Notes: generated from the letters alone by a model not told the origin. 64,000 nucleotides of DNA from an uncultured Bacilli bacterium (GCA_947627925.1 CANQXW010000001.1:13314-77313); one strand, 5' to 3'. Shown: positions 1,839-63,929, counted from the first letter of the stretch. Numbers and translations: made by a program.

Positions 1839-1936
1839 ATTTTTCGCCCTCCCTTCGCTTTTTTCTACAAGATATTATAACACCTAGAAAGGTATTTGAC
1901 AACAACAAAGTGCCAAATGAACGTTAATTTAATGAC

Positions 1937-2107
1937 TTATCTAATTGTGACTTGAACACACCTTCTTTTTGTAAAAAGTTTGGCTAGGGAGTCGCCAATG
2001 GAAGTACCTATTTCATAGATTTTATCCATGATTTTAATTATTCCTTCTAAAACGGGTCCTGATAAAGACCCACCTTTTATTTCTAATAATTCTTCATTAC
2101 TTAACAT
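1937..2107 (-). CDS. class IIb bacteriocin precursor, peptide 2 (double-glycine leader)
   Basis: Hand translation of the minus strand gives MLSNEELLEIKGG|SLSGPVLEGIIKIMDKIYEIGTSIGDSLAKLFTKRRCVQVTIR, 56 aa. The leader is a textbook LSxxELxxIxGG. The GGAGG RBS (rc of 2112-2116) overlaps the stop of peptide 1. This ORF is not in the ORF track because it is under 60 aa. Confidence 0.7.
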   Translation of the reverse strand: MLSNEELLEIKGGSLSGPVLEGIIKIMDKIYEIGTSIGDSLAKLFTKRRCVQVTIR

Positions 2108-2115
2108 AGGACCTC

Positions 2116-2268
2116 CTACTTACAAGCCTTAGAGTTCACGGTGCCATTTAAAACTCCAGCGAAAAACACTACAATTCCGGAAACAATTCCCGTAATTAAA
2201 GTAACCATACTGGCACTCATCGCTCCTCCTTGTAACTTTAACATTTCTTCATTATTTAATTTAATCAT
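2116..2268 (-). CDS. class IIb bacteriocin precursor, peptide 1 (double-glycine leader)
   Basis: Minus strand: MIKLNNEEMLKLQGG|AMSASMVTLITGIVSGIVVFFAGVLNGTVNSKACK, 50 aa. It has a GG leader, a GxxxG-type helix-helix motif (GIVSG) and a cationic C-terminus. The RBS is GAGGAGG (rc of 2271-2279). Confidence 0.7.
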   Translation of the reverse strand: MIKLNNEEMLKLQGGAMSASMVTLITGIVSGIVVFFAGVLNGTVNSKACK

Positions 2269-2278
2269 TATTACCTCC

Positions 2279-2692
2279 TCATTTAAATAATTTTAAAATA
2301 AATGTTATAATTTTTTCTTTACCATAATAAAGAGTAACTAACCCTGCTTCATTATCATATAGTTCTTTATCTAGATTAAGATCTATTTGTTGATATATTA
2401 CTTCATCAATCACTTCATATTCGCCATACTCATCAATTTCATAATTTACTTTTTGCTTGTTAAAATATAAGGTTCGGTTTTCGCTTAAGGCATCAGAGAG
2501 TGTTCCGTTGGCCATAATGCTTAAAACTAAACCATCATAAACGCCATAACAAGTTATCTTTTTCGTTATGTAATGCGTATTAGAATAAATAATTAAAAAG
2601 ATGATTAATAAAGCAAATAATAAATCGAGAAAGATACCTCTAGGAATTTTCAGGTGCAATAGTTTTTGATAATTGATTTTTAAGTAATTCAT
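2279..2692 (-). CDS. short membrane-anchored protein in the bacteriocin operon (truncated LcnD/HlyD-like accessory protein or immunity protein)
   Basis: 137 aa with an N-terminal TM helix (FLDLLFALLIIFLIIY) followed by a short extracytoplasmic segment. It overlaps the ABC transporter 3' end by 53 nt. It is far shorter than the ~460-aa LcnD/PlnH accessory proteins. Confidence 0.3.
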   Translation of the reverse strand: MNYLKINYQKLLHLKIPRGIFLDLLFALLIIFLIIYSNTHYITKKITCYGVYDGLVLSIMANGTLSDALSENRTLYFNKQKVNYEIDEYGEYEVIDEVIYQQIDLNLDKELYDNEAGLVTLYYGKEKIITFILKLFK

Positions 2693-4766
2693 TGTGACCC
2701 TCTACTTCAATAATATTTTTAAATAATCTTTTTTGATTTTTATGAGATATATAAATAATGGTTTTATTCTTAAAATAATTCTTAATATTTTTAATTATTT
2801 TACTTTCTAACTTTTTATCTACTTCACTTAAAGCCTCATCTAAAATAATAATACTCGCCTTCTTCAAAAGTCCTCTTGCTAAAATTATTCTTTGCCTTTC
2901 ACCTCCTGATATGTTTTTAGATGCACTTTCTACTAAAGATTCATATCTTAATCCTTTTTTCGAAACAATATCTTCAATTTCACAGATATCACAAATATCT
3001 AAAAAATCTTGATGGGCAATATCTCTACTGGCTAAAATATTTTCTCTAATTGTGCCCGTAAATAATTCTTCATGTTGGCCAATATATAAAATATTATTTC
3101 TAATCGTATTAATATCAATATCCTTAATATTTTCTTTACCTATGAGTATTTCTCCTTTATTTATTTGGTAATCTTTATTAAGTAAATGACATATTGTACT
3201 TTTCCCTGATCCACTGGGTCCATCTAATAAAATATGCGTATTTTCTTTAATCGTAAAAGAAACATCATCTAAAACATTAAAATAATTATTGTAAGAGTAA
3301 CTAACATTTTGAAAGACAATATCGCCTTTTAGACTATCTTTAATTTTATTATTATCTTCTTCTTCAATTCCTAAAAACTCTGCAATTTTTCCAAAAGAGG
3401 CTTTAATATAATTAAATGTCGGAATAACCCCAATTAAATTTTTAAGAGAATCAATGCCATAAGATAAAATAATATTAAAAGTAAATAAATTAATTAAATC
3501 TAACTTTTTATGAATAACTAAATATAATCCCACCGAATTTAGAATAAAGAAACAAAGCTCTAGTAAAACATCTTTTCCTAAATTAGTGAAATTTAAATAA
3601 CTATTAAATTCATAATTATTCCAAAAATATTTAGCTAAGACTTTTTCAATTTTCTCTAAAGCAATATTTTTAATATTTAAATTTTTAATACTTTCTAAAT
3701 TGGTAATATTTTCATATATTACACTATTAAAATCAGTTTCATAATTTAAATTTTCTAAAACTTTATAGTAAATACTTTTACTAATAACTATCCCATAAAA
3801 ACTATAGATAATAATAAAGATTATTAAAATAATTGTTAGTGTTTTATTTAAAATAAATAAAATCACTAATGATAATATAAGCAAGAGCATATCCAAGAAA
3901 GATGAAACAAAAAGATCCGTAAAAAGTTTTTTAATGAAAGAAAGTTCTGATATTCTTGTTACTATCTCTCCTGGCATTCTACTCTTTATATGTTTTAAAG
4001 GAAGGTTAAATAAATGATTTAAAAAACTAGGATAAATGATGGTATCAAGGCGATTACTTAAATGGTTTTCATAATAACTTTTAGCATATATTGTTAATAT
4101 TTTACATATAGTTAATAAACCAAAGGCCATAATTAAATACTTAAAATAGTTCTGATTATAACTAATTAAATTACTTCCTACTTTTAAGTAAAAAGAAGTA
4201 ATAATAGCTAGGATTGTCCAAATAAAACTTAAATAAATTATTTTACTAATAAGAAACTTTTCCTTAAAAAGAATATTAATAAATAACTTTTTAATGGTTA
4301 GAGATTCATCCATTTTAATTAAATTATCTCTTACTTTAGAAAGGATGATATGACCGGTAAATAATTTATTAAATTCTGTTAAAGCCATTTTCCTATATCC
4401 AATGCTTGGGTCCATGAGATATACCATATTTTTCCTAATGTCTTTAACAACGACAAAATGCTCTAAACCATTTTCGAGTTTTAAATGGGCAATAAAGGGA
4501 AAAGTTAAACTATTTATAGTTAAATCATGCTCCAAAACCCCTTCGGAATCAAAGCCCCATTTATTGAAAGCTCTAACTATTTGATAAGCATTCGTGCCAT
4601 TATAATCCGTTAAAGTATCTTCCCTTAACTTTTCTAAGGTAATATAACCACCATAATACATAATAATCCACTGCATACAACATACGCCACAGTCTTTAAA
4701 ATCATGTTGCAAAACTGGTTTTAAATTTTGCATATTTTTCCTCCCTTCACTATTATTATTCGTCAC
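2640..4766 (-). CDS. bacteriocin-processing ABC transporter, peptidase C39 + permease + ATPase (LagD/ComA family)
   Basis: 708 aa. The N-terminal C39 motif is QHDFKDCGVCCMQ with catalytic Cys, then EHFVVV (His) and VYLMDPSIG (Asp). Six TM helices follow. Walker A is LDGPSGSGKST, the ABC signature is LSGGERQRIILAR and Walker B is IIILDEA. Confidence 0.9.
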   Translation of the reverse strand: MTNNNSEGRKNMQNLKPVLQHDFKDCGVCCMQWIIMYYGGYITLEKLREDTLTDYNGTNAYQIVRAFNKWGFDSEGVLEHDLTINSLTFPFIAHLKLENGLEHFVVVKDIRKNMVYLMDPSIGYRKMALTEFNKLFTGHIILSKVRDNLIKMDESLTIKKLFINILFKEKFLISKIIYLSFIWTILAIITSFYLKVGSNLISYNQNYFKYLIMAFGLLTICKILTIYAKSYYENHLSNRLDTIIYPSFLNHLFNLPLKHIKSRMPGEIVTRISELSFIKKLFTDLFVSSFLDMLLLILSLVILFILNKTLTIILIIFIIIYSFYGIVISKSIYYKVLENLNYETDFNSVIYENITNLESIKNLNIKNIALEKIEKVLAKYFWNNYEFNSYLNFTNLGKDVLLELCFFILNSVGLYLVIHKKLDLINLFTFNIILSYGIDSLKNLIGVIPTFNYIKASFGKIAEFLGIEEEDNNKIKDSLKGDIVFQNVSYSYNNYFNVLDDVSFTIKENTHILLDGPSGSGKSTICHLLNKDYQINKGEILIGKENIKDIDINTIRNNILYIGQHEELFTGTIRENILASRDIAHQDFLDICDICEIEDIVSKKGLRYESLVESASKNISGGERQRIILARGLLKKASIIILDEALSEVDKKLESKIIKNIKNYFKNKTIIYISHKNQKRLFKNIIEVEGHNELLKNQLSKTIAPENS

Positions 4767-4910
4767 TAAGTACCCAATTTCCTTTTTTTTAAAGCAAATT
4801 TTTTTAAAAAATTAAAACTTTTTTACCAATTATTATATATTTGGTAACAAATCTGGTAATTTTATTAAAATTTAGAACATAAAATATACTAAGTTTATTT
4901 TAGGAGGATA

Positions 4911-5408
4911 ATGATGATTAATAAACAAAATTTATGGTTTGTAACTTTATTTTCTTTAATATTAATATTAGGAATTTATTATGTAAGTATCGATGATGAA
5001 GTAACCTCTGTTTTAAAAGCGGAAAATGATAATCAAAGTAATGAGGTTATCGAAATAAATGAGTCCGATGTTTTAGTCGCTTTAGAAGTGGAAAACGATG
5101 AAGAAAAACAAGCTTTAATGGAAGAGTATCAAAATATCTTATTAGATGGCGATAGTACCATCGAAGAAAAGAATGTCGCCTATGAAAATATGCAAAAGTT
5201 AAATAATGCTAAAACAGAAGAAGAAAAAATTAAAAACTTAATCAAAGAAAAATTTTCTCTTAATTCTTTTGTCAAAATAAAAGATACCTCTATTAGTATA
5301 GTAGTATCTTCTAAAGATCATAATAACGAAAAAGCTAATAAAATCATTAGAGCCATCCAAGAATTATACGAAGATGAAAAATATATAACCGTTAAGTTTA
5401 ATTCATAA
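4911..5408 (+). CDS. spoIIIAH: stage III sporulation protein AH-like
   Basis: 165 aa. The N-terminus MMINKQNLWFVTLFSLILILGIYYV aligns with B. subtilis SpoIIIAH MLKKQTVWLLTMLSLVVVLSVYYI. The C-terminal ...KANKIIRAIQELYEDEKYITVKF follows the same pattern as ...AIIRLVRSELGGVQSVAVEF. Confidence 0.6.
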   Translation: MMINKQNLWFVTLFSLILILGIYYVSIDDEVTSVLKAENDNQSNEVIEINESDVLVALEVENDEEKQALMEEYQNILLDGDSTIEEKNVAYENMQKLNNAKTEEEKIKNLIKEKFSLNSFVKIKDTSISIVVSSKDHNNEKANKIIRAIQELYEDEKYITVKFNS

Positions 5409-5514
5409 ATGGGCATACCCATTTATTTTTTTAAGGCATTGCTTTAAAAATTATCAACTTTTTATATTAACATTTTTAACTGTCTGAATTTAAGTTTTAC
5501 ATATCTGGCGGCGG

Positions 5515-5550
5515 ATCGCCATGATGAGAACCTCAACCCATCATGGCGAT
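5515..5550. terminator. GC-rich 12-bp perfect inverted repeat (ATCGCCATGATG...CATCATGGCGAT) between convergent genes
   Basis: Seen directly in the sequence. A T-rich tract follows on the + strand. It lies inside the GC-rich patch at 5505-5830. Confidence 0.5.
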
Positions 5551-5568
5551 TATATTTGGGATTTATCA

Positions 5569-6819
5569 TTAACCTAAAACTACGTATGGATTCCCAATGG
5601 AACCTTCTCCACCGACCCCAATATTTACATCGGATTCAAGATAGAAGACAGGACGAACCGCATGCGACCAGTTTAGCACGTGGTAGCTCTCCTCTTGGTC
5701 ATTTGGCACGGCCCATGAAGTGTAACGGCCGCCGACCCAGCCGCTGCCCTCTCCATCCCTGGTCATCGACCATTCATGATCCGTTGTTGGTGCAATTGAG
5801 CCTTTTGGAGTGTTCGTTGTTCCATTTAATCCATTTTGAATAAATAACCAATTACTTGTATTTTGACTTCCTGCATATAAATAGTCACTTAAGTACATTA
5901 ACCCTATTTTATTTCCAGTAAAATTTTTTGTCCTTTCATTTTGAAATACTGTTGGATTACTACTTGATGGTGAATCTCCTATATAATATGTTGTTGGTGA
6001 TATCCATGTTGTCCATTTCTCTTCTTTCATATAACTGTATTTGCCATTTTTTATAAATATATTTGGATATGTTGATGTATTTGTAGTGTTTCCGTTTAAT
6101 CTCTTATATAAATCCGCATCTGGCCAGGTTGTATTTGATCCAGCACTATTGTGCCATTGAAATGTGCTTGTACTACTTCCTTGAACTAATTTTGTCGCTT
6201 TGATTAGTTTTAATCTTCCTTCTGTATCTATTCCTATTATTCTATACATGTATATATCCATATTGTCTTTACACTCTTGTTGATTTTTTGCTCCGAAACA
6301 GATAAAGTTATCTGTTACTGTATCTTTATCTCCAACGAATCTTCTTAAATCATCTTTGACATTACCTGTTATTGTTTCATTTCTTACTTTTAAATCATCT
6401 TCTGATTCCAAACTATGTGAATTGGCTATTATTTCATCTAAAGTCATTCTATGTACAAAATATAATGCACAATATACTGTTGTTGCTGTATTTACCGTTA
6501 TTTCAAAAGAACTATTATTAAACGTTATTACATCTGATGTATTTAATTCTTTTCCATCGCCATCATAACATTCTGCTTTAAGAAATCCAATGTCAGAAGA
6601 ATCTGTTGGCCATGTATTTCTATTTTCTTGTGGTTCACCATCTAAATAATATGCTAATGTACTTTTAGTTTTAATATTTTCTTGTTCACTATAACTCACT
6701 TTATTTATGTCTTTATCTCTATTGGCATATGATTTAAATGTTAGATACAACATAGGTATTTCTAATACCAATAATGCTATTACTACATTTCTAAACACTT
6801 TTCTCTTCATTACATTCAC
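5569..6819 (-). CDS. secreted/membrane-anchored protein with GC-rich C-terminal domain (possible DUF1566/Lcl-like C-terminus)
   Basis: 416 aa with an N-terminal signal anchor. The last ~87 aa (…GWVGGRYTSWAVPNDQ…AVRPVFYL…) are encoded by ~50% GC DNA, against ~26% elsewhere. Confidence 0.5.
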   Translation of the reverse strand: MNVMKRKVFRNVVIALLVLEIPMLYLTFKSYANRDKDINKVSYSEQENIKTKSTLAYYLDGEPQENRNTWPTDSSDIGFLKAECYDGDGKELNTSDVITFNNSSFEITVNTATTVYCALYFVHRMTLDEIIANSHSLESEDDLKVRNETITGNVKDDLRRFVGDKDTVTDNFICFGAKNQQECKDNMDIYMYRIIGIDTEGRLKLIKATKLVQGSSTSTFQWHNSAGSNTTWPDADLYKRLNGNTTNTSTYPNIFIKNGKYSYMKEEKWTTWISPTTYYIGDSPSSSNPTVFQNERTKNFTGNKIGLMYLSDYLYAGSQNTSNWLFIQNGLNGTTNTPKGSIAPTTDHEWSMTRDGEGSGWVGGRYTSWAVPNDQEESYHVLNWSHAVRPVFYLESDVNIGVGGEGSIGNPYVVLG

Positions 6820-6821
6820 TC

Positions 6822-7517
6822 CTAACTCTCTTTAACAAAATAAGCATAGCAAGTATTTGGCTTGCCTGCTTTAAAACTAAACTTGCCATTTTCATAACCA
6901 GTTATTGTTATGCCATCATTACTACTACATTTGGCTTCTAAATAAGAATAACTACTTAAATCAGCACTACTATTAACAAAACGATAATGTTTGTCTTTAT
7001 ATTCTTCAACGCCAAATTCTTCATCTTCCACTAATACATAGACTGTTATATCAGTATTGAAATCTTTATCGTAATATATATGACATACTACTTGCTTTGG
7101 GCCAAGTTTTCCACCTTCATCTTGAACTGTAAATTTTATTATTCCATTTTCTAAACTATAATTAGAATAAGTTAATTCTTCTTTAGATGGAGTACAATTA
7201 CTCATTTCTTCATTTAAATGATAACCATAAACTGGTATATTTGTTGATAAATTATATTTTTTACTATCAGTTCGATCTTGTAAATAAATTTGAACATTTA
7301 AATCAGCTCCTGCTACTTTACTAGGCAGTCCTTCCCCACTACTTTTAGCAAAATTACCTATTTTGGTACTTAATATAGGTATTTCATTATTACTACTATA
7401 ATAGGCATATGAATTATGTGATGAAATAAGCCATATAACTTGAATTATAATTACTAAAGCAATAATTATTAAACTTTTATGTTCTTTAAAGATTTTTAAT
7501 AATTTACTTACTTGCAT
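6822..7517 (-). CDS. secreted/membrane-anchored hypothetical protein (operon partner of 5569..6819)
   Basis: 231 aa with an N-terminal TM anchor. Its stop is 2 nt upstream of the next gene's start. Confidence 0.5.
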   Translation of the reverse strand: MQVSKLLKIFKEHKSLIIIALVIIIQVIWLISSHNSYAYYSSNNEIPILSTKIGNFAKSSGEGLPSKVAGADLNVQIYLQDRTDSKKYNLSTNIPVYGYHLNEEMSNCTPSKEELTYSNYSLENGIIKFTVQDEGGKLGPKQVVCHIYYDKDFNTDITVYVLVEDEEFGVEEYKDKHYRFVNSSADLSSYSYLEAKCSSNDGITITGYENGKFSFKAGKPNTCYAYFVKES

Positions 7518-7723: not shown

Positions 7724-8167
7724 ATGGTAAAAGAATATTTATTTGAAAACTTAATTGATTTAAGAGAATCTAGAGGATTAAAGCAAAAAGATATGGCTAA
7801 AATATTACATGTATCAAGACCTAATTATACAAGATGGGAAACTAAAGCCACTATTATACCTTTAAAAAAACTTAATGAATTATGTAACTACTTTAAAGTT
7901 GATATGGATTATATTGTAGGTTTTAAAAGAAAAGCTAAACCTATGCATAATGATAATGTTTTAGATAAAAAAGTAATTGGGGAAAATATTCGTAAAATAA
8001 GACACAAATATAATTTGAGTCAAAATGATTTAGCTAATATTTTAAACACTACTCATTCAGTTATAAGTTATTATGAAAATGGTAAAACTTTAATTCTTAC
8101 TGCCTTCTTAATTGAAATATGTGAAAGATATAATGAATCAATGGATCAAATATGTAATCGGAAATAA
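7724..8167 (+). CDS. XRE-family transcriptional regulator with two tandem HTH domains
   Basis: Two Cro/C1-type HTH segments: LKQKDMAKILHVSRPNYTRWE and LSQNDLANILNTTHSVISYYENG. Confidence 0.75.
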   Translation: MVKEYLFENLIDLRESRGLKQKDMAKILHVSRPNYTRWETKATIIPLKKLNELCNYFKVDMDYIVGFKRKAKPMHNDNVLDKKVIGENIRKIRHKYNLSQNDLANILNTTHSVISYYENGKTLILTAFLIEICERYNESMDQICNRK

Positions 8168-8558: not shown

Positions 8559-9494
8559 ATGCATGAACAAGATTATTTTAATGAAATAAGAAGTATTATT
8601 GAAAATGTGGAAGTAAATAAAAAAGTTAGAGAGTATAAAAATAATTATGATGATTTAATAGCTAAATGGAATATTGGGAAATTACTAGTAGAAGCCCAAG
8701 GTGGAGAAAAAAGAGCCAAATATGGTAATAACTTAATAAAAAGATGGTCAGAAATATTTGTGAATGAATATGGAAAACAATACAGTGTTACAAATTTAAA
8801 ATACATGAGACAATTTTATTCAGCATTCTCAATTGGTCAACCAGTGGTTGGCCAATTAACATGGTCTCATATCATCAAATTATTACCCATTAAAAATGAA
8901 AATGAAAGAAATTATTATATTAACTAAGTTATTTTAAATAATTTGTCTAAAAGAGAATTAATTAATGAAATTAAAAGTAATGCATTTAATAGACTGTCCT
9001 ATGCTGATAAAGAAAATATTAAATTAATTAATAATGAAGAAGATAAATATAATTTAACTCTATCAGATATGATTAAAGATCCTATTATTATTAAAACGGA
9101 TAAAAATATAAATAACTTAAATGAAAAAGCTATTCATAAATTACTTATTGAAATGCTAGAGCAAAGATTTCTAGAGTTAGGTGTGGGATTCACTCTTGTT
9201 GGTCATGAATATAAAATAATTAAAGATAATATAACTTATAAAATTGATTTATTATTCTTTAATGTTAAATTAAATTGTTATATACCTATAGAAATTAAAA
9301 ATCGAAATATAACACCAGAAGATATTGGACAAATAGAATTTTATACACATTTAATAGATGATAATATTAAAGAAATATATAACAATCCAAGTATTGGTCT
9401 TATATTAGTTAAAAAGAAAAATAAATATGTTTTAGAATATGCTACAGGAAAAAACAATATTTTTGTTTCTAGTTATTTATTAGAAAAAATTTAA
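8559..9494 (+). pseudogene. yhcG: YhcG/DUF1016 PD-(D/E)XK nuclease gene, copy A, split by an in-frame TAA at 8925-8927
   Basis: ORFs 8559..8927 and 8943..9494 together carry NLKYMRQFY, QLTWSH, SKRELINEI, FTLVGHEY..IDLLFF..IEIK and PSIGLILVKK, the hallmarks of DUF1016_N plus YhcG_C PDDEXK. Copy B has CAA (Gln) where copy A has the TAA. An extended -10 (TGaTATAAT) is at ~8523. Confidence 0.75.
8831..8857. repeat. palindrome P3, inside the yhcG-A coding sequence (AATTGGTCAACCA-G-TGGTTGGCCAATT)
   Basis: It encodes I-G-Q-P-V-V-G-Q-L, immediately before the conserved TWSH motif. Confidence 0.85.
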
Positions 9495-11511: not shown

Positions 11512-12225
11512 GAGCAAAAGAAATTAGACAATCCTACTTTCCAAATTGGGCCCACACTGTGTGCCCAATTGACATATTCTCATTTTAGAGAATTATTACC
11601 CATTAAAAATGAAAATGAAAGAAATTATTATATTAACCAAGTTATTTTAAATAATTTATCAGTTAGAGAATTAATTAATGAAATTAAAAGTAATGCATTT
11701 AATAGATTATCTTATGCTGATAAAGAAAATATTAAATTAATAACTAATGAAGAAGATAAATACAATTTAACACTTTCTGATATGATTAAAGATCCCATTA
11801 TTATTAAAACGGATAAAGATATAAATAATTTAAATGAAAAGGCTATTCATAAGTTATTAATTGAAATGCTAGAGCAAAGATTTCTAGAGTTATGTTTAGG
11901 ATTTGCTCTAGTTGGTCATGAATACCCTTTAAAAATAAATAATAAAACTTATCGTACTGATTTATTATTTTTTAACTATGAAATAAATGCTTTTGTCGTT
12001 GTCGAAGTTAAAAATGAAGAATATAAACCATCACAAATTGGTCAAATAAAATTTTATATGGATTATATAAATAAGAATATTAAAAAAGAACATCATGCTA
12101 AAACAGAAGGAATATTAATAGTTAAAGAAAAAGATAAATATGTTATGAAGTATATAAATGATAAAGGAATTTATATAACATCATTTAAATTATTAAATAA
12201 TATGAAAGATAAAATTTTAAAATAA
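11512..12225 (+). pseudogene. yhcG: YhcG/DUF1016 PD-(D/E)XK nuclease gene, copy B, N-terminally truncated (no ATG; frame opens at 11512)
   Basis: LLPIKNENERNYYINQVILNNLSVRELINEIKSNAFNRLSY…LVGHEY is near-identical to copy A (~90% nt, ~95% aa over ~110 aa). The PDDEXK core that follows is only ~45% identical. The upstream N-domain is missing. Confidence 0.6.
11544..11570. repeat. palindrome P7 (AATTGGGCCCACAC-TGTGTGCCCAATT), in frame with yhcG copy B
   Basis: It encodes FQIGPTLCAQLTYSH, continuous with ORF 11569..12225. Confidence 0.8.
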
Positions 12226-17059: not shown

Positions 17060-17330
17060 TTTAAAAAAATTCATAAACAAAAGGGCGAAAATTATTCACG
17101 GTACCACCTTTATTTATGAATTTAATTCATCTCATCATTTTAACGCATCACTGCGAAACCAAAGTACTTTTAATTCCTCGGGTTAGCTCCTAAGGGATAT
17201 AAATTAAATACTTTTATTAGTTTCCACCAACCACTAACTCTCTTTAAAAAGCTCTTTAATTTACGTGTCTTATTCATCGCCTTTAAATTTACACTTTAAA
17301 TTATATGCAAAATCTCAATGTTAGTCAACC
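17060..17330 (-). promoter_or_regulatory. T-box riboswitch leader of ileS
   Basis: The rc of 17093-17110 is AAAGGTGGTACCGTG, the T-box consensus AAnnGGGTGGnACCGCG. An AGAGAG element sits further 5'. The extent is approximate. Confidence 0.5.
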
Positions 17331-22755: not shown

Positions 22756-23607
22756 TTATATAGTAACCTTTTCTTCGCTTAAATTATTGGTTATGTATTC
22801 TAACGAATCTAATAAACTTTCAAAAGATATATTACTAGAATATGGAGCAGTAATTTGATAACTTTTCCATAATTTTTTAAGCTGTTCACTTGATTTCATA
22901 TTATTTAGTTGCTCTTTAACATTTTCTATATTTAATTCAGTTTTTTTATATCTGAAAGTATTTTTTATTGCTAAAACAAGATTTTTAAAATTTATTTTTT
23001 CTTTATTATCATTTATCAAAACATAAATATCATAAAAATCTTTCATTCTAGTATTATATATATCTCTTTCTATAATAGTTTGATATTTTTCAGCAATAAA
23101 AGTTTCCAATGTATAAGCAAAAATTGGTATTTTCTTATCTTCAAAATGGGAATTATACATATAGAGAATTTCTCTTGGAGTTATTCTATCCCCTGTTGTA
23201 AGTTCTATAGCAAGATAAACTTTTAAATTATCCATTGTTGCTAAAATGTTTATCTTAAATCCACCATACTCATTGTCTTCCCTTATATCTTTAATATTTT
23301 CAATTTTAAATTTTATGCCATCATCAACTTTTGTATTTAATATTTCTGTTATTATTTCTATTACATTATCTTTATTAAGTGGCAAACTCTTTAATGTTGC
23401 GTCCATATCCTTTGTTGTTCTTTCATCATCACCGATAATAGAAGAAAGTAATAATCCGCCTTTTAAAATAATATTATGTTTATATTTGCTTTTTGAAAGT
23501 CTTTCTAAAATATGTTCAAAAAAATACATTTGATATAATTGGGCTGATACATTACTATTTCCTTTTGCCTTCTTTGAAATAATACTTTTTAATTTGTCTT
23601 TATCCAC
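22756..23607 (-). CDS. abiEii: nucleotidyltransferase toxin AbiEii/AbiGii family (DUF1814)
   Basis: 283 aa with the KGG motif (NIILKGGLLL), DxD (TTKDMDATL) and typical length. It overlaps the AbiEi stop by 1 nt. Confidence 0.8.
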   Translation of the reverse strand: MDKDKLKSIISKKAKGNSNVSAQLYQMYFFEHILERLSKSKYKHNIILKGGLLLSSIIGDDERTTKDMDATLKSLPLNKDNVIEIITEILNTKVDDGIKFKIENIKDIREDNEYGGFKINILATMDNLKVYLAIELTTGDRITPREILYMYNSHFEDKKIPIFAYTLETFIAEKYQTIIERDIYNTRMKDFYDIYVLINDNKEKINFKNLVLAIKNTFRYKKTELNIENVKEQLNNMKSSEQLKKLWKSYQITAPYSSNISFESLLDSLEYITNNLSEEKVTI

Positions 23608-24236
23608 TATAACAATACCTCCATATATTCACTTACTTTCTTTTCAATTTTCATAATTTTGGCATACTTGGTAAGTTTGCTTAAATTTTTATTTTTACTT
23701 CTAGCGTACTCTTTTAGGGCTTTCGAAAATATTTCACCATCAATTTTATTTCTATTTTTAATAATATCACAAATTGTTCTCTCAATATCATATACTTTAA
23801 TTTTCATACCAAAAGGAGATGTCATTTCTATTGCACCTAAATCTAAAATATTTCTATTTACAAAGCTAATAATTACATTTTTATCTTTTTGTAAAACTCC
23901 ACTATAATCATTAGGCAAAGTGATATTGTATAAAAGAGGTGTACGATCTGATAAATTATGTAAGTATAAAGCAGTAGCCAATGAAAATCTTACATTTTTA
24001 CTTTTAGAGGCTATTTTATAATATTCATCTTCTATATAATTAGGAAGTCCATAATAGCCTTTTGAAATTCTTATTAATGTTCCTTTCTTTACCATGTTTG
24101 TCAAAAATTTTTTATCAATGCCATTATTTACAACTTCTTTGGTTGTAATACAACCATTATTTTTTTCAACAATTTTTAAAATTTTATCATAATTCATAAT
24201 TTTACACCGTTCTCTTTCTAACTGAAATTCTATCAT
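23607..24236 (-). CDS. abiEi: AbiEi antitoxin-like transcriptional regulator (type IV TA / abortive infection); true start probably ATG at 24197
   Basis: N-terminal winged-helix …ILKIVEKNNGCITTKEVVNNGIDKKFLTNMVKKGTLIRISKGYYGL. Confidence 0.75.
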   Translation of the reverse strand: MIEFQLERERCKIMNYDKILKIVEKNNGCITTKEVVNNGIDKKFLTNMVKKGTLIRISKGYYGLPNYIEDEYYKIASKSKNVRFSLATALYLHNLSDRTPLLYNITLPNDYSGVLQKDKNVIISFVNRNILDLGAIEMTSPFGMKIKVYDIERTICDIIKNRNKIDGEIFSKALKEYARSKNKNLSKLTKYAKIMKIEKKVSEYMEVLL

Positions 24237-28014: not shown

Positions 28015-28137
28015 AAAAACAACGCCTAACTCAGCAATGAATTAGGCACACTCATCATAGATTAGGCAACACTCAACACGACAATATTTGAATGTTCCTT
28101 TTTATTGTATTCAAGTTTCCTTGACATATTCATTATA
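28011..28137 (-). ncRNA. promoter-sRNA-terminator module, copy 2
   Basis: -35 TTGAAT (rc of 28155-28160), 17-bp spacer, -10 TATAAT (rc of 28132-28137). The core matches copy 1. The terminator is GCCUAAUUCAUUGCUGAGUUAGGC plus a U-run. Confidence 0.45.
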
Positions 28138-28238
28138 CTATAAAAATTTCCTTAATTCAAGATGATCGCAAATTGCTATCAAACATGTATTAATTGGTTA
28201 ATTTTGCCAATAATAATTTTAAGTAAGGATGATATTGT

Positions 28239-29648
28239 ATGAATAAAATTGTGGAAAGAGTTAAAAATGAATTTACTAACACTCCTGATTTAAAAATAAA
28301 AGAAGTAAAAATTAATCCTTTTAAATCTGTATATGTTATTTTTATTGAAACTGTCTGTTCTTCTGATAAAGTAAATGATTATATCTTAAAAAATCTAACT
28401 TTAAAAAAAGATGTTGATATTGAAAGTTCTATTCCTGGACCAAATACGGTTCCTTTAGATAATTATGATCAAATTGAATTTTATTTAACTAATGGCTTTG
28501 CCATAGTTATTTATAATAAAGATATTATTGCCATTGAAGTAAGGGGCGATTTAAATCGGAGCATTACTCAATCTTTAAGAGAGCCTTCCTTACTAGGGCC
28601 AGAAGATTCTTTTAATGAAAATTACCAAACTAATATGGGACTTATTAAAAGAAGAATTAAAAGTCATACTTTAAAAACTGAAGAAATAGTAATGGGAAGA
28701 ATTACTAAAACCACTATTAGCATTAATTATATTGATACTATTGCTGATGAAAAAAATGTGCAAATTATTAAAGAAAAACTCCAAAGGATTGATGTGGATG
28801 GTGTTATTGATCAAGGAACAATCATTAACTATTTAGAAAGTGAAAATAAAACTGTTTTTCCCACGATTAAAAGAACCGAAAGACCGGATTTAGCTGTAAC
28901 CTCTCTTTTAGAAGGGAAAATTGTTATCATGATGGATACCTCTCCTTTTGCCATTATCTTACCTACTTTTTTAATTGATTTTATTAATCCGGTTAATGAT
29001 AATTATGTTAAAAGTATTAATGTGGGTTTTATTAAATTATTACGTTTTTTCTCTTTTATCATGTCGATGGTTACCCCAGGAGTTTATATTGCCATTATTA
29101 ATTATAATCAAGAAACTATTCCTTCAAGTTTGCTTATTAATTTTAGTACCCAAAGATCGGGTGTTCCCTTTCCCAGCATTGTGGAACTCATCATGCTTTT
29201 ATTTATTTGTGATGTGTTAAGAGAAAGTGACTTACGATTCCCTTCTAATTTTGGTTCCGCCATTTCTATTTTAGGAGCCTTAATCATTGGTGATGCGGCG
29301 GTTAATGCGGGGTTAGTTTCACCTATTGCTATCATTATTGCTTCTTTTACCTTTATCACTAGTTTAATTTTTACGGAGTTAGAAATTAATAACGCTTTAA
29401 GATATTACCGTTACTTATTTTTATTCTTCGCCGCCTTCTTTGGTTTATATGGTATCTTCCTTTGCGCTATTCTTCTTTTAATAAATTTAATTTCTTTAAA
29501 ATCTTTAAATGCGCCTTTCTTTGCTCCCATTGCTCCTTTTAATAAAGAATATTTCTTTAAAAGTGTTCTTAAAAGAAAAGATATTAAAAATACCAAACGG
29601 AGTAAATTAATTACTAATAAGAATTTAACGAGAGGAAAATTTTCATGA
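28239..29648 (+). CDS. gerAA: spore germination protein, GerA (A-subunit) family
   Basis: 469 aa with a GerA-family N-domain and a C-terminal 4-5 TM region. Operon with the C and B subunits. Confidence 0.85.
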   Translation: MNKIVERVKNEFTNTPDLKIKEVKINPFKSVYVIFIETVCSSDKVNDYILKNLTLKKDVDIESSIPGPNTVPLDNYDQIEFYLTNGFAIVIYNKDIIAIEVRGDLNRSITQSLREPSLLGPEDSFNENYQTNMGLIKRRIKSHTLKTEEIVMGRITKTTISINYIDTIADEKNVQIIKEKLQRIDVDGVIDQGTIINYLESENKTVFPTIKRTERPDLAVTSLLEGKIVIMMDTSPFAIILPTFLIDFINPVNDNYVKSINVGFIKLLRFFSFIMSMVTPGVYIAIINYNQETIPSSLLINFSTQRSGVPFPSIVELIMLLFICDVLRESDLRFPSNFGSAISILGALIIGDAAVNAGLVSPIAIIIASFTFITSLIFTELEINNALRYYRYLFLFFAAFFGLYGIFLCAILLLINLISLKSLNAPFFAPIAPFNKEYFFKSVLKRKDIKNTKRSKLITNKNLTRGKFS

Positions 29649-30724
29649 AAAAAATATTAATATTAATTCTATGTTCTCTATTTCTCGGAGGCTGTTATGA
29701 TAATATTGAGCTTAATAATTTAGCAATTGTAAGTGGCATTGGTATTGACTATGAAGATGATAACTTTATTCTAACTTATGAAGTTTTAAACGATACTAAA
29801 ACCGACGAAAATACGGCGATGCTCAGTTATACCGAAGAAGGAAAAGGCAAATCGATTGTCGAAGCTTTTACCAACACCAATTATAAAATTGGCAAGAAAC
29901 CTTATTTTGCTCATTTACGAGTTGTCTTATTAAGTGAAACAATAATTAAAGATCACTTAGATGAAATAAGTGACTACTTAATAAGAGACACCGATATTCG
30001 CGATGAGTTTATTAGTGTAGTTGTGAAAGATACCACCCCTAAAGAAGTACTTACCCATAATAGTAAAAATATTCCCGTAGTTAGTGATCTGATTATTAAT
30101 CTTTTAGATAATGAAAAATATAATAATAATCTTTCTGTTACCGATACTTTTCAACAAGTTTTAGCTAAATTTATTAGTCATAACCAAGATGCTGTTTTAA
30201 GCTCTCTTACCATAAACGAAAATGATGAGATAACTTTAAGCAATTTTTATCTGTTTAAAGGCTACTATTACCAAGATACTTTAACCGAAGAAGAATCTAG
30301 TTTTTATAATTTACTTACCAAAGATGTTTTTGGTTTAAAAGTAGAAAATAAATATGAAAAAGGTAATGTTGTTATTAATATAAGTCACTCTAAACCCGAA
30401 ATAGAGGTAACAAGTGATAAAATAAAAATAAATTTAAAATTAGATGGAAAAATCTTAGATAATAATGCCGATTTTGATTTAAAAAGTGAAAAGTCTTATC
30501 AAGAATTAAATAAAGATTTCTCTTTAATTATTAAAGATAAAGTTACTAGCTTTATTCAAAAATTACAAGCCAACAAATCCGATATTTTAGGCCTTCAAGA
30601 GATATACTTTAAAAAGTGGCGAAAAGAAAATCATAATCTATGGGAAACTGCAAACATTGAAGTTAAGATTGATTTAAAAATTAATACTAAAGGTTTTATA
30701 TTTGAGGTGGAAAATGAAAAATAA
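29645..30724 (+). CDS. gerAC: germinant receptor C-subunit lipoprotein (Ger(x)C family)
   Basis: The lipobox is LFLGGC. LAIVSGIGIDYED is typical of GerxC. Confidence 0.8.
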   Translation: MKKILILILCSLFLGGCYDNIELNNLAIVSGIGIDYEDDNFILTYEVLNDTKTDENTAMLSYTEEGKGKSIVEAFTNTNYKIGKKPYFAHLRVVLLSETIIKDHLDEISDYLIRDTDIRDEFISVVVKDTTPKEVLTHNSKNIPVVSDLIINLLDNEKYNNNLSVTDTFQQVLAKFISHNQDAVLSSLTINENDEITLSNFYLFKGYYYQDTLTEEESSFYNLLTKDVFGLKVENKYEKGNVVINISHSKPEIEVTSDKIKINLKLDGKILDNNADFDLKSEKSYQELNKDFSLIIKDKVTSFIQKLQANKSDILGLQEIYFKKWRKENHNLWETANIEVKIDLKINTKGFIFEVENEK

Positions 30725-31730
30725 ATTAACTTATTTTATTTCTAGTTCATCAATGTTTGGTATTGGCTTCTTTCTCCTTTTTAAAAATGCCGGCAAGGAT
30801 GCTTGGATTTCTCTTCTTTTAGGTACTCTTCTAGGAATTATGATTATGTATCTTTATAGTAAAATTAAAAAATATTTAAAAGATAATAATTTAAAAGAAA
30901 CTTTAAAAAATACTTTTATGGGAAAAGTTTATTTAGGAATATTTTTAATTTTTTATCTTTATTTAATAACCATTATTTTAATTTTACTACCAATGTTTGT
31001 TAATTCTTTCTACCTTTTATATACTCCTAAAATTATTGTCATTATTCCCTTCTTACTTTTAGCCGTTTATATAACTTATAAAGAAAAAAGAGTTTTAGAA
31101 ACTCTTAGCAATTTTCTTTTTACTATAAGTATTGCTGTCATAATTATTTATATAATTGCTCTTTTTAAATATATCGATTTTAATAATTTAAAACCTGTCT
31201 TTTCCGAAAGCACTTGGGGAATTATGAAAGCATCTTTAATCTATGCCTCTATTACAACTATTCCTAATATTATAACTATTAATTTTAATAATAATGATTT
31301 TAAATATGAACTTAAAGTATATTTAATTTCTAGTTTCATGCTCCTTCTAATTTTACTTTCAACCATTGTTTGTTTAGGAGAACCTTTAATTAAAATTTAT
31401 AGTTTCCCTGAATATGCTGTTTTAAAACAAATTAAAATATTAGATTTTATTGAAAATATTGAAAATTTATCGACCTTTATTTGGTACTTTGATATGTTTA
31501 TAACTCTTTCAGTTCTTACTACTAATGTTAAAGAAATACTTCCTAAAAAAAGAAATTTTATTTATTACCTACTCGCCATTTTTCTCACCATTATTTTAAG
31601 TATTTTTATCATTGGTAGTAACTACCGCTATATAATAACTGTTTTTTATACTTATCCTTTTATCTTATTTGGCTTTCTAGTTCTATTTATATTACTCTTA
31701 TTTATCCTAAAAAAAAGAAGAAAAGATTAA
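30702..31730 (+). CDS. gerAB: germinant receptor B-subunit (spore germination permease, APC superfamily)
   Basis: 342 aa, ~10 TM, with an N-terminal …GKDAWISLLLG motif. Confidence 0.8.
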   Translation: MRWKMKNKLTYFISSSSMFGIGFFLLFKNAGKDAWISLLLGTLLGIMIMYLYSKIKKYLKDNNLKETLKNTFMGKVYLGIFLIFYLYLITIILILLPMFVNSFYLLYTPKIIVIIPFLLLAVYITYKEKRVLETLSNFLFTISIAVIIIYIIALFKYIDFNNLKPVFSESTWGIMKASLIYASITTIPNIITINFNNNDFKYELKVYLISSFMLLLILLSTIVCLGEPLIKIYSFPEYAVLKQIKILDFIENIENLSTFIWYFDMFITLSVLTTNVKEILPKKRNFIYYLLAIFLTIILSIFIIGSNYRYIITVFYTYPFILFGFLVLFILLLFILKKRRKD

Positions 31731-43512: not shown

Positions 43513-43740
43513 ATGAATGAAAACTATAAAAAAGCGCCCAATATTTTAACTGATAAAGATTTAGCTTATCTGAAAGATATTTTTGGGTGGAATCATACAG
43601 CATATAAAAATGAAATGGAAGCTTTAAATTATATTGAAGATAAAAGTGTTAAAGATATGATTAATGAAGCGACAAAACTTTTTAAAGAAAATATGAATCT
43701 AGTTTTAGATTTAGTAAAGGATGGGGAAAATGGAAAATAA
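43513..43740 (+). CDS. small hypothetical protein co-transcribed with cotF-like gene
   Basis: 75-aa ORF overlapping the next gene by 20 nt. Confidence 0.4.
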   Translation: MNENYKKAPNILTDKDLAYLKDIFGWNHTAYKNEMEALNYIEDKSVKDMINEATKLFKENMNLVLDLVKDGENGK

Positions 43741-44062
43741 AAAAATTGCTAACCCTAAAACTCCCGTGCCGACGGGATTAGGTTTAAATGATCAAGATTA
43801 TATGACTACGCTTTTAAGTACTTTAAAAGCTATGGTTAAAGACATGACTGTAGCTTTAACCGAAGCCTCTAATAGCGAACTTTATAAAAAATTTAAAGAT
43901 ATGTTTGAAAACTTAATAAAATTACAAAGAGCTTCTTATGAATTAATGTTTAAATTAGGATGGTATACTTTAGAAGAAGCTAAAGATACTAAAGTTAATA
44001 CTTTAGGTAGTGATTTACAAACACAACTAGATAATTTAAATAGTGAAAAGGGAAAATCGTGA
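43721..44062 (+). CDS. cotF: spore coat protein F (Coat_F domain)
   Basis: …NPKTPVPTGLGLNDQDYMTTLLS…ASYELMFKLGWYTLEEA matches the CotF pattern. Confidence 0.7.
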   Translation: MGKMENKKIANPKTPVPTGLGLNDQDYMTTLLSTLKAMVKDMTVALTEASNSELYKKFKDMFENLIKLQRASYELMFKLGWYTLEEAKDTKVNTLGSDLQTQLDNLNSEKGKS

Positions 44063-63756: not shown

Positions 63757-63832
<76 letters not shown>

Positions 63833-63840
63833 ATAAAAGA

Positions 63841-63929
63841 TGGTGCCCAAGGCCGGACTTGAACCGGCACGGGTGATTAAGCCCGCAGGATTTTAAGTCC
63901 TGTGCGTCTACCTATTCCGCCACTTGGGC
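63841..63929 (-). tRNA. tRNA-Leu (TAA)
   Basis: The rc is GCCCAAGTGGCGGAATAGGTAGACGCACAGGACTTAAAATCCTGCGGGCTTAATCACCCGTGCCGGTTCAAGTCCGGCCTTGGGCACCA. It has a long variable arm. Confidence 0.85.

Follow-up and report, generated by a model that had tools for sequence, protein, structure and literature searches.

A conserved operon for two exported double-glycine peptides in uncultured gut Bacilli, a candidate class-IIb-like two-peptide system

The operon and its two peptides

We suggest that four tightly packed genes on the minus strand of a 64-kb window (the whole stretch of DNA that was analysed, 64,000 nt from an uncultured Bacilli bacterium) form an operon for the production and export of a membrane-active heterodimer, a two-peptide agent of class-IIb-like type that is most likely a bacteriocin; judging from sequence, we would put the probability of this reading at roughly 0.6. 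The genes encode a C39-ABC exporter (2640..4733), a 137-aa protein (2279..2692) and two small peptides, pepA (2116..2268) and pepB (1937..2107). Both peptide ORFs, of 50 and 56 aa, had been proposed in an earlier sequence-only reading of this DNA and were recovered with exactly the sequences given there. The GGAGG ribosome-binding sites claimed for them are likewise present, a GGAGG-type site overlapping the preceding stop codon in each case, and the gap between pepA and pepB amounts to 8 nt. The description of the genes as unannotated has to be withdrawn, as NCBI/ENA gene calls already hold all four exact products. An alternative genetic code with TGA read as Trp was considered and rejected: table 11 reads all genes cleanly, and the organism has sporulation genes. 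An Rfam search returned no RNA element within or near the operon.

The pepA precursor (50 aa, minus strand) divides into a leader at 2224..2268 (MIKLNNEEMLKLQGG) and a mature peptide of 35 aa at 2119..2223, and the pepB precursor (56 aa, minus strand) into a leader at 2069..2107 (MLSNEELLEIKGG) and a mature peptide of 43 aa at 1940..2068. The double-glycine leaders proposed for the pair hold up well: both match the consensus, and the pepB segment LSNEELLEIKGG is an exact LSxxELxxIxGG. Hydrophobic residues occupy positions -4, -7 and -12 in both leaders, and also -15 in pepA. With 15 aa in pepA and 13 aa in pepB, the leaders lie at or below the 15–30 aa range given for class IIb bacteriocins (PMC2850506). 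Among the 1076 small-ORF candidates of the window, the E[LM]xx[LI]xGG leader pattern occurs in only two, pepA and pepB, which adjoin the only C39-ABC gene there. Because they are the sole ORFs with such a leader and sit beside the sole transporter of this type, we do not regard them as chance frames.

The mature peptides differ in character. While pepA is hydrophobic (GRAVY 1.25, net charge +2), pepB is amphipathic and cationic (hydrophobic moment ~0.57, pI 9.5). GxxxG-like motifs had been noted in the first peptide, where GIVSG and GVLNG are indeed present; to this we add that pepB likewise has one, GTSIG. Each peptide also carries a single Cys near its C-terminus, in the context ...NSKACK in pepA and ...KRRCVQVTIR in pepB. 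An alignment of 14 homologues shows no change in the GG site, in one GxxxG and in one C-terminal Cys of each peptide, and the peptides of L042, which were read separately from this alignment, retain the GG site, the GxxxG and the single Cys. In these alignments the peptide invariants are limited to four things: the GG cleavage site, one GxxxG each and one C-terminal Cys each. In six species pairs with synonymous change approaching saturation, dN/dS was 0.10–0.26 for pepA and 0.08–0.17 for pepB; on these values purifying selection acts on both, with a stronger constraint on pepB than on the transporter.

No match to a curated family was strong enough to give the peptides a name, in agreement with the earlier impression that they resemble no bacteriocin that could be named. 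Neither reaches the threshold of any family in Pfam or NCBIfam. The best NCBIfam match, to lactococcin G-beta, scored 20 bits where 37 are required and lay mostly within the leader; with the lactococcin G/enterocin 1071 profiles (NF038034/NF038035), pepB scored 20.0 and pepA 11.7 bits against the cutoff of 37, the matches beginning in the leader. A tblastn search of plasmid records gave no match to pepA or pepB.

The transporter and its small partner

The transporter gene was previously read as a 708-aa ORF with an intact C39 triad and full ABC motifs. The catalytic and ABC features stand, whereas the length probably does not. The frame is open back to a GTG at 4766, but translation most likely starts at the ATG at 4733, giving 697 aa (2640..4733, minus strand), since GGGAGG lies 7 nt upstream of this codon and homologues start there; the public gene call also begins at this ATG. 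Three Pfam domains occur in one chain, each far above its cutoff (PF03412, Peptidase_C39, 8.9e-31; PF00664, ABC_membrane, 1.6e-24; PF00005, ABC_tran, 1.3e-26), which is the architecture of a peptidase-containing transporter (PCAT), with the C39 peptidase at the N-terminus, a six-helix membrane domain and an ATPase. The C39 domain (4332..4721, minus strand; residues 16–145 of the 708-aa ORF) is predicted to cut after the leader GG. Full-length alignments were obtained with PCAT1 of Clostridium thermocellum (4RY2, E = 7e-87) and ComA of Streptococcus (8HF4, E = 6e-84), with which the protein shares its architecture, the catalytic Gln/Cys/His/Asp set (Gln9, Cys15, His92 and Asp108, aligned with the catalytic residues of PCAT1) and the ABC motifs (Walker A, 505 GPSGSGKST; signature, 608 ISGGERQ; Walker B, 628 IIILDEA; H-loop, 662 ISHK). 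None of the NCBIfam PCAT subfamilies was reached (best TIGR01193, 366.6 against 523.85 bits, and NF045998, 302.9 against 500 bits), and by sequence the transporter is a divergent PCAT subfamily. Unlike PCAT1 and ComA, the PCAT of the window lineage has 18 additional C-terminal residues, whose codons run into the following gene. The 53-nt overlap reported between the transporter and the 137-aa ORF is real (2640..2692), but it is specific to this lineage rather than general: in more distant relatives the ABC gene encodes 679 aa, and its stop codon shares bases with the start codon of the gene behind it.

The 137-aa protein (2279..2692, minus strand) is a putative minimal export accessory. Its structure model comprises a cytoplasmic N-terminal helix, a TM helix at ~20–39, an extracytoplasmic six-stranded beta-barrel at 41–127 and a C-terminal helix; the best fold match of the predicted barrel is the beta-barrel of membrane-fusion/adaptor proteins, so that the model combines an adaptor-type barrel with a single N-terminal TM anchor. 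Word-indexed searches did not extend beyond close relatives, with 8 accessory clusters, 5 of pepB and 2 of pepA, and a metagenome scan with a 24-sequence accessory alignment gave only two loci. The wider family emerged only from an exhaustive profile search, as ~90 clusters of unnamed proteins, all of ~135 aa and always following this type of transporter.

The protein had been taken to replace the ~460-aa LcnD/PlnH accessory expected at this position. We consider it more likely that this conserved ~135-aa family with an adaptor-like barrel is itself the accessory in minimal form. The 137-aa protein is probably a minimal export accessory, as judged from its model, because the family is conserved, always lies behind the transporter and has a fold nearest to the adaptor barrel. 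At ~135 aa it is far smaller than HlyD-family/membrane-fusion proteins (~230–480 aa; LcnD, ComB and PlnH, and the solved MacA, Spr0693, EmrA, BesA and ZneB), and it differs from LcnD, ComB and PlnH in having no alpha-helical hairpin, no lipoyl domain and no HlyD profile match. Neither the hairpin nor a lipoyl domain appears in the model, and the protein is too short to hold them. HlyD Pfam models matched none of 46 family members at E ≤ 1, the accessory-family profile found nothing among PDB sequences, and Foldseek against the PDB with a first model gave no significant match; the likeness to HlyD-family proteins is one of modelled fold, with homology no more than possible. PedC and BrcD of the pediocin and bactofencin operons are likewise small, membrane-anchored and PCAT-adjacent and accompany Cys-containing peptides (PMC5465099), but a thioredoxin accessory of this type was rejected: the 137-aa protein has no CxxC (its sole Cys, C48, is not conserved), its fold is not thioredoxin-like, and no NCBIfam match was found.

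It may be that the 137-aa protein is an immunity protein, whether or not it also takes part in export, and that it shields the producer by binding the peptides or their receptor on the outer side of the membrane. We regard this as rather unlikely. As the earlier reading had stated, no obvious immunity gene is present besides this ORF: from the PCAT gene to rpsU, every lineage has the genes of the module and no others, and the 137-aa gene is the sole operon gene besides those of the transporter and peptides throughout. Its small size, its membrane anchor and a domain that faces outward in the model are traits found in many class II immunity proteins, its rate of evolution is close to that of the peptides, and accessory proteins possibly play a part in immunity (PMC2850506). 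Against this, the gene begins before the ABC gene has ended in each of the lineages, an arrangement that points to stoichiometric coupling with the transporter. ABC-then-accessory is also the gene position of LcnD, ComB and PlnH. The 137-aa gene occupies this same position, whereas class IIb immunity genes sit in the operon of the peptide genes (PMC2850506). Its best fold matches are transporter adaptor proteins, and the best conserved segment of the family is the cytoplasmic N-terminus, which could not contact extracellular peptides.

Conservation, position and expression signals

All 15 of the related lineages that were compared have the four genes in one and the same order, including those in which identity of the 137-aa protein falls to ~30%. 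The position of the module is also the same in nearly all lineages, with a spoIIIAH-like gene upstream and rpsU-yqeY downstream. In the window, the spoIIIAH-like gene is a stand-alone, divergently oriented gene of 165 aa (4911..5408, plus strand; Pfam SpoIIIAH, 7e-10); such a gene adjoins the module in eight loci (L001, L006, L016, L020, L022, L033, L036 and L042) and is absent from L040, where the module is present. This adjacency may be synteny only. In the same part of the window, a GC-rich stretch at ~5500–6000 corresponds to the 3' end of a 416-aa ORF.

Identity declines in parallel along the locus, from 98 to 70% in S21, 75 to 52% in YqeY, 62 to 43% in the ABC protein and 58 to 29% in the accessory. 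Searches of plasmids and viral contigs found no homologue of the module. We conclude from these comparisons that the module is a chromosomal one, passed on vertically and kept at one position throughout a deep clade, and not a strain-specific island; the host clade is one of uncultured, AT-rich, spore-forming Bacilli of animal guts. Bacteriocins are typically patchy and mobile. A vertical, position-fixed locus is not what a bacteriocin island would usually look like, so that a role other than that of a bacteriocin is conceivable.

Upstream of the transporter, a putative SigH-type promoter, AAAGGAAAT-N12-GACGAAT (AGGA, 18-nt spacer, GAAT), lies at 4758..4785 on the minus strand and was proposed from its conservation. 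Within it, AGGA-18 nt-GAAT (4783..4758) agrees, as a pattern match, with the SigH motif of a -35 AGGA and a -10 GAAT spaced by 17–18 nt (PMC12456013). All 11 aligned upstream regions, the most distant loci included, share AAAAAGGAAAT without change; GAAT is exact at that spacing in the window, L006, L022, L020 and L042, and roughly half of the distant loci do not preserve it. The strict SigH pattern has two matches in 64 kb against 0.21 expected, the second of which (28152..28128) overlaps a sigma-A-like -10, TAGTATAAT, and is not informative. From its likeness to a SigH promoter we infer that the AGGAAAT...GAAT element may drive the operon. It is preferred over a sigma-70-like site at 4859..4832 found in a consensus scan, because the latter overlaps a palindrome and is conserved in close relatives only. 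The palindrome, TTACCAA-N11-TTGGTAA (4847..4823), and a separate TTACCA (4859..4854) make up operator-like repeats (4823..4859, minus strand) in the region common to the operon and the divergent spoIIIAH-like gene. They are conserved among closer relatives only; in L006 and L022 both arms of the palindrome are altered jointly (TGCCAA...TTGGCA), keeping the symmetry. At the other end, a predicted sigma-70-type rpsU promoter, TTGTCA-17-TGnTATAAT (1874..1902, minus strand), conserved as an element in relatives, marks the boundary. No terminator-like site was predicted between pepB and rpsU in the window lineage, and a hairpin with a T-run follows pepB in L031.

Class IIb likeness and the role of the peptides

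Class IIb bacteriocins are recognised by adjacent genes, GG leaders of 15–30 aa, GxxxG helix-helix motifs and a dedicated ABC transporter with an accessory protein, and an immunity gene beside the two peptide genes is a constant feature of the class (PMC2850506). The proposal of a class IIb pair is borne out as regards the adjacent GG-leader genes, the shared operon with an intact C39-ABC exporter and the GxxxG in both peptides, but not as regards an immunity gene and two-peptide-dependent antibacterial activity. As in lactococcin G, plantaricin EF/JK and enterocin 1071, GG-leader genes stand side by side with a C39-ABC gene and an accessory gene, and each peptide has a GxxxG; also as in the class, a more hydrophobic peptide is paired with an amphipathic, cationic one, and the C-termini are cationic. 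Unlike in class IIb, pepA and pepB fall outside curated families, no immunity gene was found in the operon, the leaders have 13–15 aa, each peptide has exactly one invariant Cys, and the locus is vertical and fixed beside rpsU instead of lying on a plasmid or variable island. Known class IIb peptides have zero or two Cys, and among the papers listed by literature searches on two-peptide and double-glycine bacteriocins none connected such a bacteriocin with an inter-peptide disulfide.

We propose that a transporter dimer would bind the leader helices, cleave behind GG and export 35-aa pepA and 43-aa pepB. The 137-aa protein, translationally coupled to the transporter, would act as a minimal accessory with its TM anchor and outward beta-barrel; coiled-coil and lipoyl domains may be dispensable in a single-membrane cell and hence be absent from it. 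Outside the cell, pepA and pepB would pair via their invariant GxxxG, as proposed for lactococcin G and the plantaricins. We infer, purely from the one invariant C-terminal Cys per peptide, that an inter-peptide disulfide might lock a parallel heterodimer, and the reducing habitat of the gut counts against this step. The heterodimer would then insert into target membranes. Expression could come from the conserved SigH-like promoter at the transition to stationary phase or sporulation.

A possible, though clearly less probable, alternative to the bacteriocin reading is that the peptides are exported and processed but are not weapons, and act as a disulfide-linked heterodimer in or on the envelope of the producing cell as sporulation or stationary phase sets in, or as a cell-cell signal. 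This would agree with a module kept at one locus in every lineage examined and diverging in step with neighbouring housekeeping genes, although the loci were retrieved via the module genes, so that genomes without the module could not enter the count. Strong purifying selection, heavier on pepB than on the transporter, and the lack of an immunity gene in any lineage also favour it, as do the conserved SigH-like element and the almost constant spoIIIAH-like neighbour, but L040 retains the module without flanking sporulation genes. PCATs are known to export signalling peptides as well (PMC7018657); however, no histidine kinase/response regulator or Rgg-type receptor gene lies beside the module in any locus, and pepA, with 35 aa and the hydrophobicity of a transmembrane segment, is unlike diffusible pheromones. 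The invariant GxxxG in both peptides argues against non-weapon roles, being a hallmark of pore-forming two-peptide bacteriocins (PMC2850506). That the small ORFs are chance frames or decaying remnants beside a functional transporter, as the lack of a Pfam or NCBIfam family above threshold might suggest, is effectively refuted by their conserved length, leader, GxxxG and Cys across 15 lineages, their low dN/dS (0.08–0.26 in the six pairs, with synonymous change saturating), their consensus ribosome-binding sites and a leader pattern unique within the window.

Developmentally timed chromosomal toxins offer a further comparison. CibAB is a ComX-dependent two-peptide fratricin of the GG type in pneumococci; like the cannibalism toxins of B. 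subtilis, it is chromosomal and species-wide and has an alternative-sigma or developmental promoter, and both systems have dedicated immunity genes. The module resembles them in being chromosomal and clade-wide, its SigH dependence being putative and judged from a promoter-like motif. More speculatively still, and with low confidence, the module might be, in place of a conventional competitive bacteriocin, a clade-wide, vertical, SigH-driven system secreting a disulfide-linked heterodimer of a TM-like and an amphipathic peptide for cannibalism or fratricide as sporulation begins, or for a role in the producer's envelope or signalling, with the ~135-aa barrel as the irreducible functional core of Gram-positive PCAT accessories such as LcnD and ComB.

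If the peptides are active, uncultured gut Bacilli would have yielded a new family of two-peptide bacteriocins, with an unprecedented feature in the one invariant Cys per peptide, implying a covalent heterodimer. The unnamed and unannotated 135-aa family would offer a minimal, tractable model for how accessory proteins function with PCATs in single-membrane bacteria. The deep conservation at a fixed position, together with a SigH-like promoter and no immunity gene found, raises the question of whether some bacteriocin-like GG-peptide systems are core developmental functions and not accessory weapons.

The four-gene module and its exporter

Four closely packed ORFs, all on the minus strand, fill window positions 1937..4766: a gene for a peptidase-containing ABC transporter (PCAT; 2640..4766, 708 aa if read from GTG), a gene for a 137-aa protein (2279..2692), and the genes of two double-glycine (GG) leader precursors, pepA (2116..2268, 50 aa) and pepB (1937..2107, 56 aa). 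The arrangement confirms as a whole what a sequence-only reading had observed, and both small ORFs exist and match its transcription exactly. That reading had called the pair unannotated, which is true of its ORF track alone, as the NCBI/ENA gene calls already contain the exact products of all four genes. The stop codons before the peptide genes bear ribosome-binding sites, GAGGAGG (2280..2274) and GGAGG (2116..2112). A further site, GGGAGG (4745..4740), precedes an ATG at 4733 by 7 nt; public gene calls and all homologues start the PCAT at this codon, and its length is therefore most likely 697 aa.

The PCAT contains the Pfam domains Peptidase_C39, ABC_membrane and ABC_tran, and its alignments to the solved structures of PCAT1 (4RY2, E = 7e-87) and ComA (8HF4, E = 6e-84) span the full length. 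In these alignments it keeps the oxyanion Gln9, Cys15, His92, Asp108 and every ATPase motif, while scoring below the cutoff of every curated NCBIfam PCAT subfamily (366.6 versus 523.85 for TIGR01193). Judged by these comparisons it is a divergent yet intact PCAT. The earlier claim of an intact C39-ABC exporter stands; the 708-aa length probably does not. The 53-nt overlap with the 137-aa ORF is also real. It is confined to the window's sub-clade and arises there because the ABC protein is 18 aa longer at its C-terminus; at four homologous loci of related lineages (L027-L030) the ABC gene encodes 679 aa and terminates on the accessory start codon.

Among 1076 small-ORF candidates in the window, pepA and pepB alone carry an E[LM]xx[LI]xGG leader. 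Compared with six rabbit-gut MAG species, dN/dS is 0.10–0.26 for pepA and 0.08–0.17 for pepB, next to 0.14–0.30 for the transporter and 0.15–0.32 for the 137-aa gene, with synonymous sites close to saturation in these comparisons. The co-oriented four-gene module is thus real and under selection; on sequence grounds, both leaders are canonical and the processing exporter is intact.

When 14 homologues per peptide are aligned, invariance is limited to the GG cleavage site, a single leader Glu in pepB, one GxxxG motif in either peptide (GVLNG for pepA, GTSIG for pepB) and, close to the C-terminus of both, a Cys (pepA ...N[SP]xxC[NKR]; pepB ...K..C...). This Cys is the only one in every precursor except the pepA of locus L042, which has a second within the hydrophobic stretch. 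By computation, mature pepA (starting at Ala16) has 35 aa, 3487 Da, a GRAVY of 1.25 and a net charge of +2, and mature pepB (starting at Ser14) has 43 aa, 4751 Da, a pI of 9.5 and a hydrophobic moment of ~0.57 across residues 3–33; a disulfide-linked pair would weigh ~8235.8 Da. Neither peptide attains the threshold of any curated Pfam or NCBIfam family, bearing out the earlier remark that they do not resemble known bacteriocins. Locus L038 encodes, in its region 4445..4877, a third GG-leader peptide, an additional pepA-like paralogue likewise with a single C-terminal Cys.

A probable minimal accessory protein

When the 137-aa family served as profile in an exhaustive search, 90 clusters (50% identity level) were recovered; almost all of them measure 131–156 aa and match over their full length, and no long HlyD-type protein is among them. 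Neither the 137-aa protein nor 46 relatives matched Pfam, NCBIfam or PDB sequences. The AlphaFold2 model (pLDDT 81.5, from a 46-sequence alignment) has an N-terminal helix (residues 4–12) in a Lys/Arg-rich and hence cytoplasmic segment, where conservation across the family is highest (MxYxKINYxKL). A transmembrane helix (20–39) follows, then six strands with one short helix (41–127) and a C-terminal helix. The most distant subgroup (P0076, P0097 and P0124, from loci L039 and L042) is 153–156 aa long, with an N-terminal extension and a C-terminal end ...KGG[ED][DE][SP].

The likeness of the modelled barrel to an export adaptor is one of fold and topology, with homology unproven, since other small barrels score only modestly lower (PilZ 6.9, RimM 6.4) and a Foldseek search of the PDB with a first model gave nothing significant. 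The 137-aa gene invariably follows the ABC gene and is coupled to it. Taken with the fold likeness, this means that the 137-aa protein is best read as a minimal accessory for export. It would represent an adaptor cut down to anchor and barrel, lacking the hairpin and lipoyl domains by which such proteins reach an outer membrane. It may also have a role in immunity; a review of class-IIb bacteriocins allows that accessory proteins may contribute to it (PMC2850506).

Inheritance, neighbours and putative promoter

The cluster was traced, by exact-sequence look-up and by scanning genomes, to seven species-level MAGs, every one a rabbit ('Lapin') gut 'uncultured Bacilli bacterium', and is present on many metagenome contigs as well. 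Locus context was retrieved for six distant accessory-family members and two metagenome matches. In all eight the order is identical (PCAT, ~135-aa gene, hydrophobic GG-leader peptide, amphipathic GG-leader peptide) and the start of the ~135-aa gene overlaps the ABC stop; in L036 the second peptide is present but left out of gene calls. The next gene after the module is rpsU-yqeY in all loci but L042. Most loci have a divergent spoIIIAH-like gene upstream and yabP-yqfD downstream; L040 misses the sporulation neighbours and its module still adjoins rpsU.

From near to far relatives, identity falls from 98 to 70% for S21 and from 75 to 52% for YqeY, and in parallel from 62 to 43% for the ABC protein, 58 to 29% for the accessory and 57–70 to 24–37% for the peptides. 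No relatives were found among 72,556 plasmids and 2.9 million viral contigs. The module is, on this pattern of divergence and synteny, vertically inherited at a fixed site and not a mobile island, with the proviso that all loci were found via module genes, a route by which module-less genomes escape counting.

Upstream of the PCAT start (180 nt, 11 loci aligned), AAAAAGGAAAT is invariant in all 11, with a ribosome-binding site ~30 nt later. The window element, AGGA, an 18-nt spacer and GAAT (4783..4758), recurs in four other loci (L006, L022, L020 and L042), the remainder having TAAT, AATA or GATA in place of GAAT. SigH promoters of Firmicutes combine a -35 AGGA and a -10 GAAT with 17–18-nt spacers (PMC12456013), and the strict pattern was seen twice in the window versus 0.21 expected. 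We infer that SigH probably transcribes the module as cells pass into stationary phase or sporulation. Farther upstream, towards the divergent spoIIIAH-like gene, TTACCA half-sites (4823..4859, minus strand) make up a palindrome, TTACCAA-N11-TTGGTAA (4847..4823), of which L006 and L022 have the two arms jointly altered (TGCCAA...TTGGCA). No terminator-like site was predicted in the pepB-rpsU interval of the window lineage, and rpsU has a predicted strong promoter of its own (1902..1874, minus strand).

Several further features were observed around the module. L006 and L022 also contain TTGGCA-N6-TTGCA with sigma-54-like -24/-12 spacing. In L016 and L030 the promoter region upstream of the PCAT gene is tandemly duplicated, including the AAAGGAAAT element, and an ORF of 56 aa that lacks a GG leader lies within the duplication. 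The window's spoIIIAH-like gene (4911..5408, plus strand; 165 aa, Pfam 7e-10) stands alone without further spoIIIA genes as neighbours, is divergent from the module and adjoins it in most related lineages; the adjacency may be synteny only or may tie the module functionally to a protein that is membrane-anchored and forms rings. In L042 an XRE gene takes the place of rpsU after the module, and spoIIIAH is separated from the PCAT gene by a gene for a CmpB-like membrane protein. At 5569..7517 (minus strand) and 7724..8167 (plus strand), two transmembrane-anchored proteins of 231 and 416 aa without a family match adjoin a double-HTH XRE regulator; the two proteins occur in the window, L006, L016 and L020, with a relative in L042, and are missing from L022 and L033, and thus form a variable insert beside the conserved module.

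Elsewhere in the window, a YhcG/DUF1016 PD-(D/E)XK nuclease gene is apparently split into ORFs of 122 and 183 aa (8559..9494, plus strand; its L006 counterpart is intact at 311–315 aa), and a further copy is truncated (11569..12225, plus strand); these fragments are likely pseudogenes or mobile-element remnants. An AbiEi antitoxin/AbiEii nucleotidyltransferase toxin pair (type IV toxin-antitoxin/abortive infection) lies at 22756..24236 (minus strand), a T-box leader (17078..17286, minus strand; Rfam, 121.9 bits) upstream of a 1024-aa isoleucyl-tRNA synthetase gene, and two tRNA genes at 63760..63929. A GerA-family germinant receptor operon (28239..31730, plus strand) and a CotF-like spore coat gene (43721..44062, plus strand) mark the organism as a spore former, despite its ~24% GC and 'Bacilli' MAG label.

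Comparison with class-IIb bacteriocins

Class-IIb systems are recognised by adjacent genes, GG leaders, a dedicated ABC transporter with an accessory protein, and GxxxG helix-helix motifs (PMC2850506). By sequence, the module shows every one of these hallmarks, with a putative accessory, and differs in its paired single cysteines, which are not a described class-IIb feature. To our knowledge, class-IIb members have no cysteines or two, and in our literature searches we found no paper tying an inter-peptide disulfide to two-peptide or double-glycine bacteriocins; the paired residues suggest such a bond here. The class-IIb interpretation of the earlier reading is partly supported, with membership not established: an immunity gene is missing or unrecognised and the peptides fall outside known families. 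Three features leave room for a less likely role of the peptide system, other than as a weapon: it is retained throughout the clade, no immunity gene was recognised, and its putative promoter is of a developmental type.

The system probably works like a class-IIb bacteriocin system, of which it is a putative member. Precursors would be cleaved after GG and the mature peptides exported, with the barrel protein serving as export accessory; pepA and pepB would pair via GxxxG, be joined by a disulfide and permeabilise membranes, with expression timed by SigH. It brings together two new families, one of peptides that each keep an invariant cysteine and one of putative minimal accessory proteins, and its pattern of evolution is unusual.
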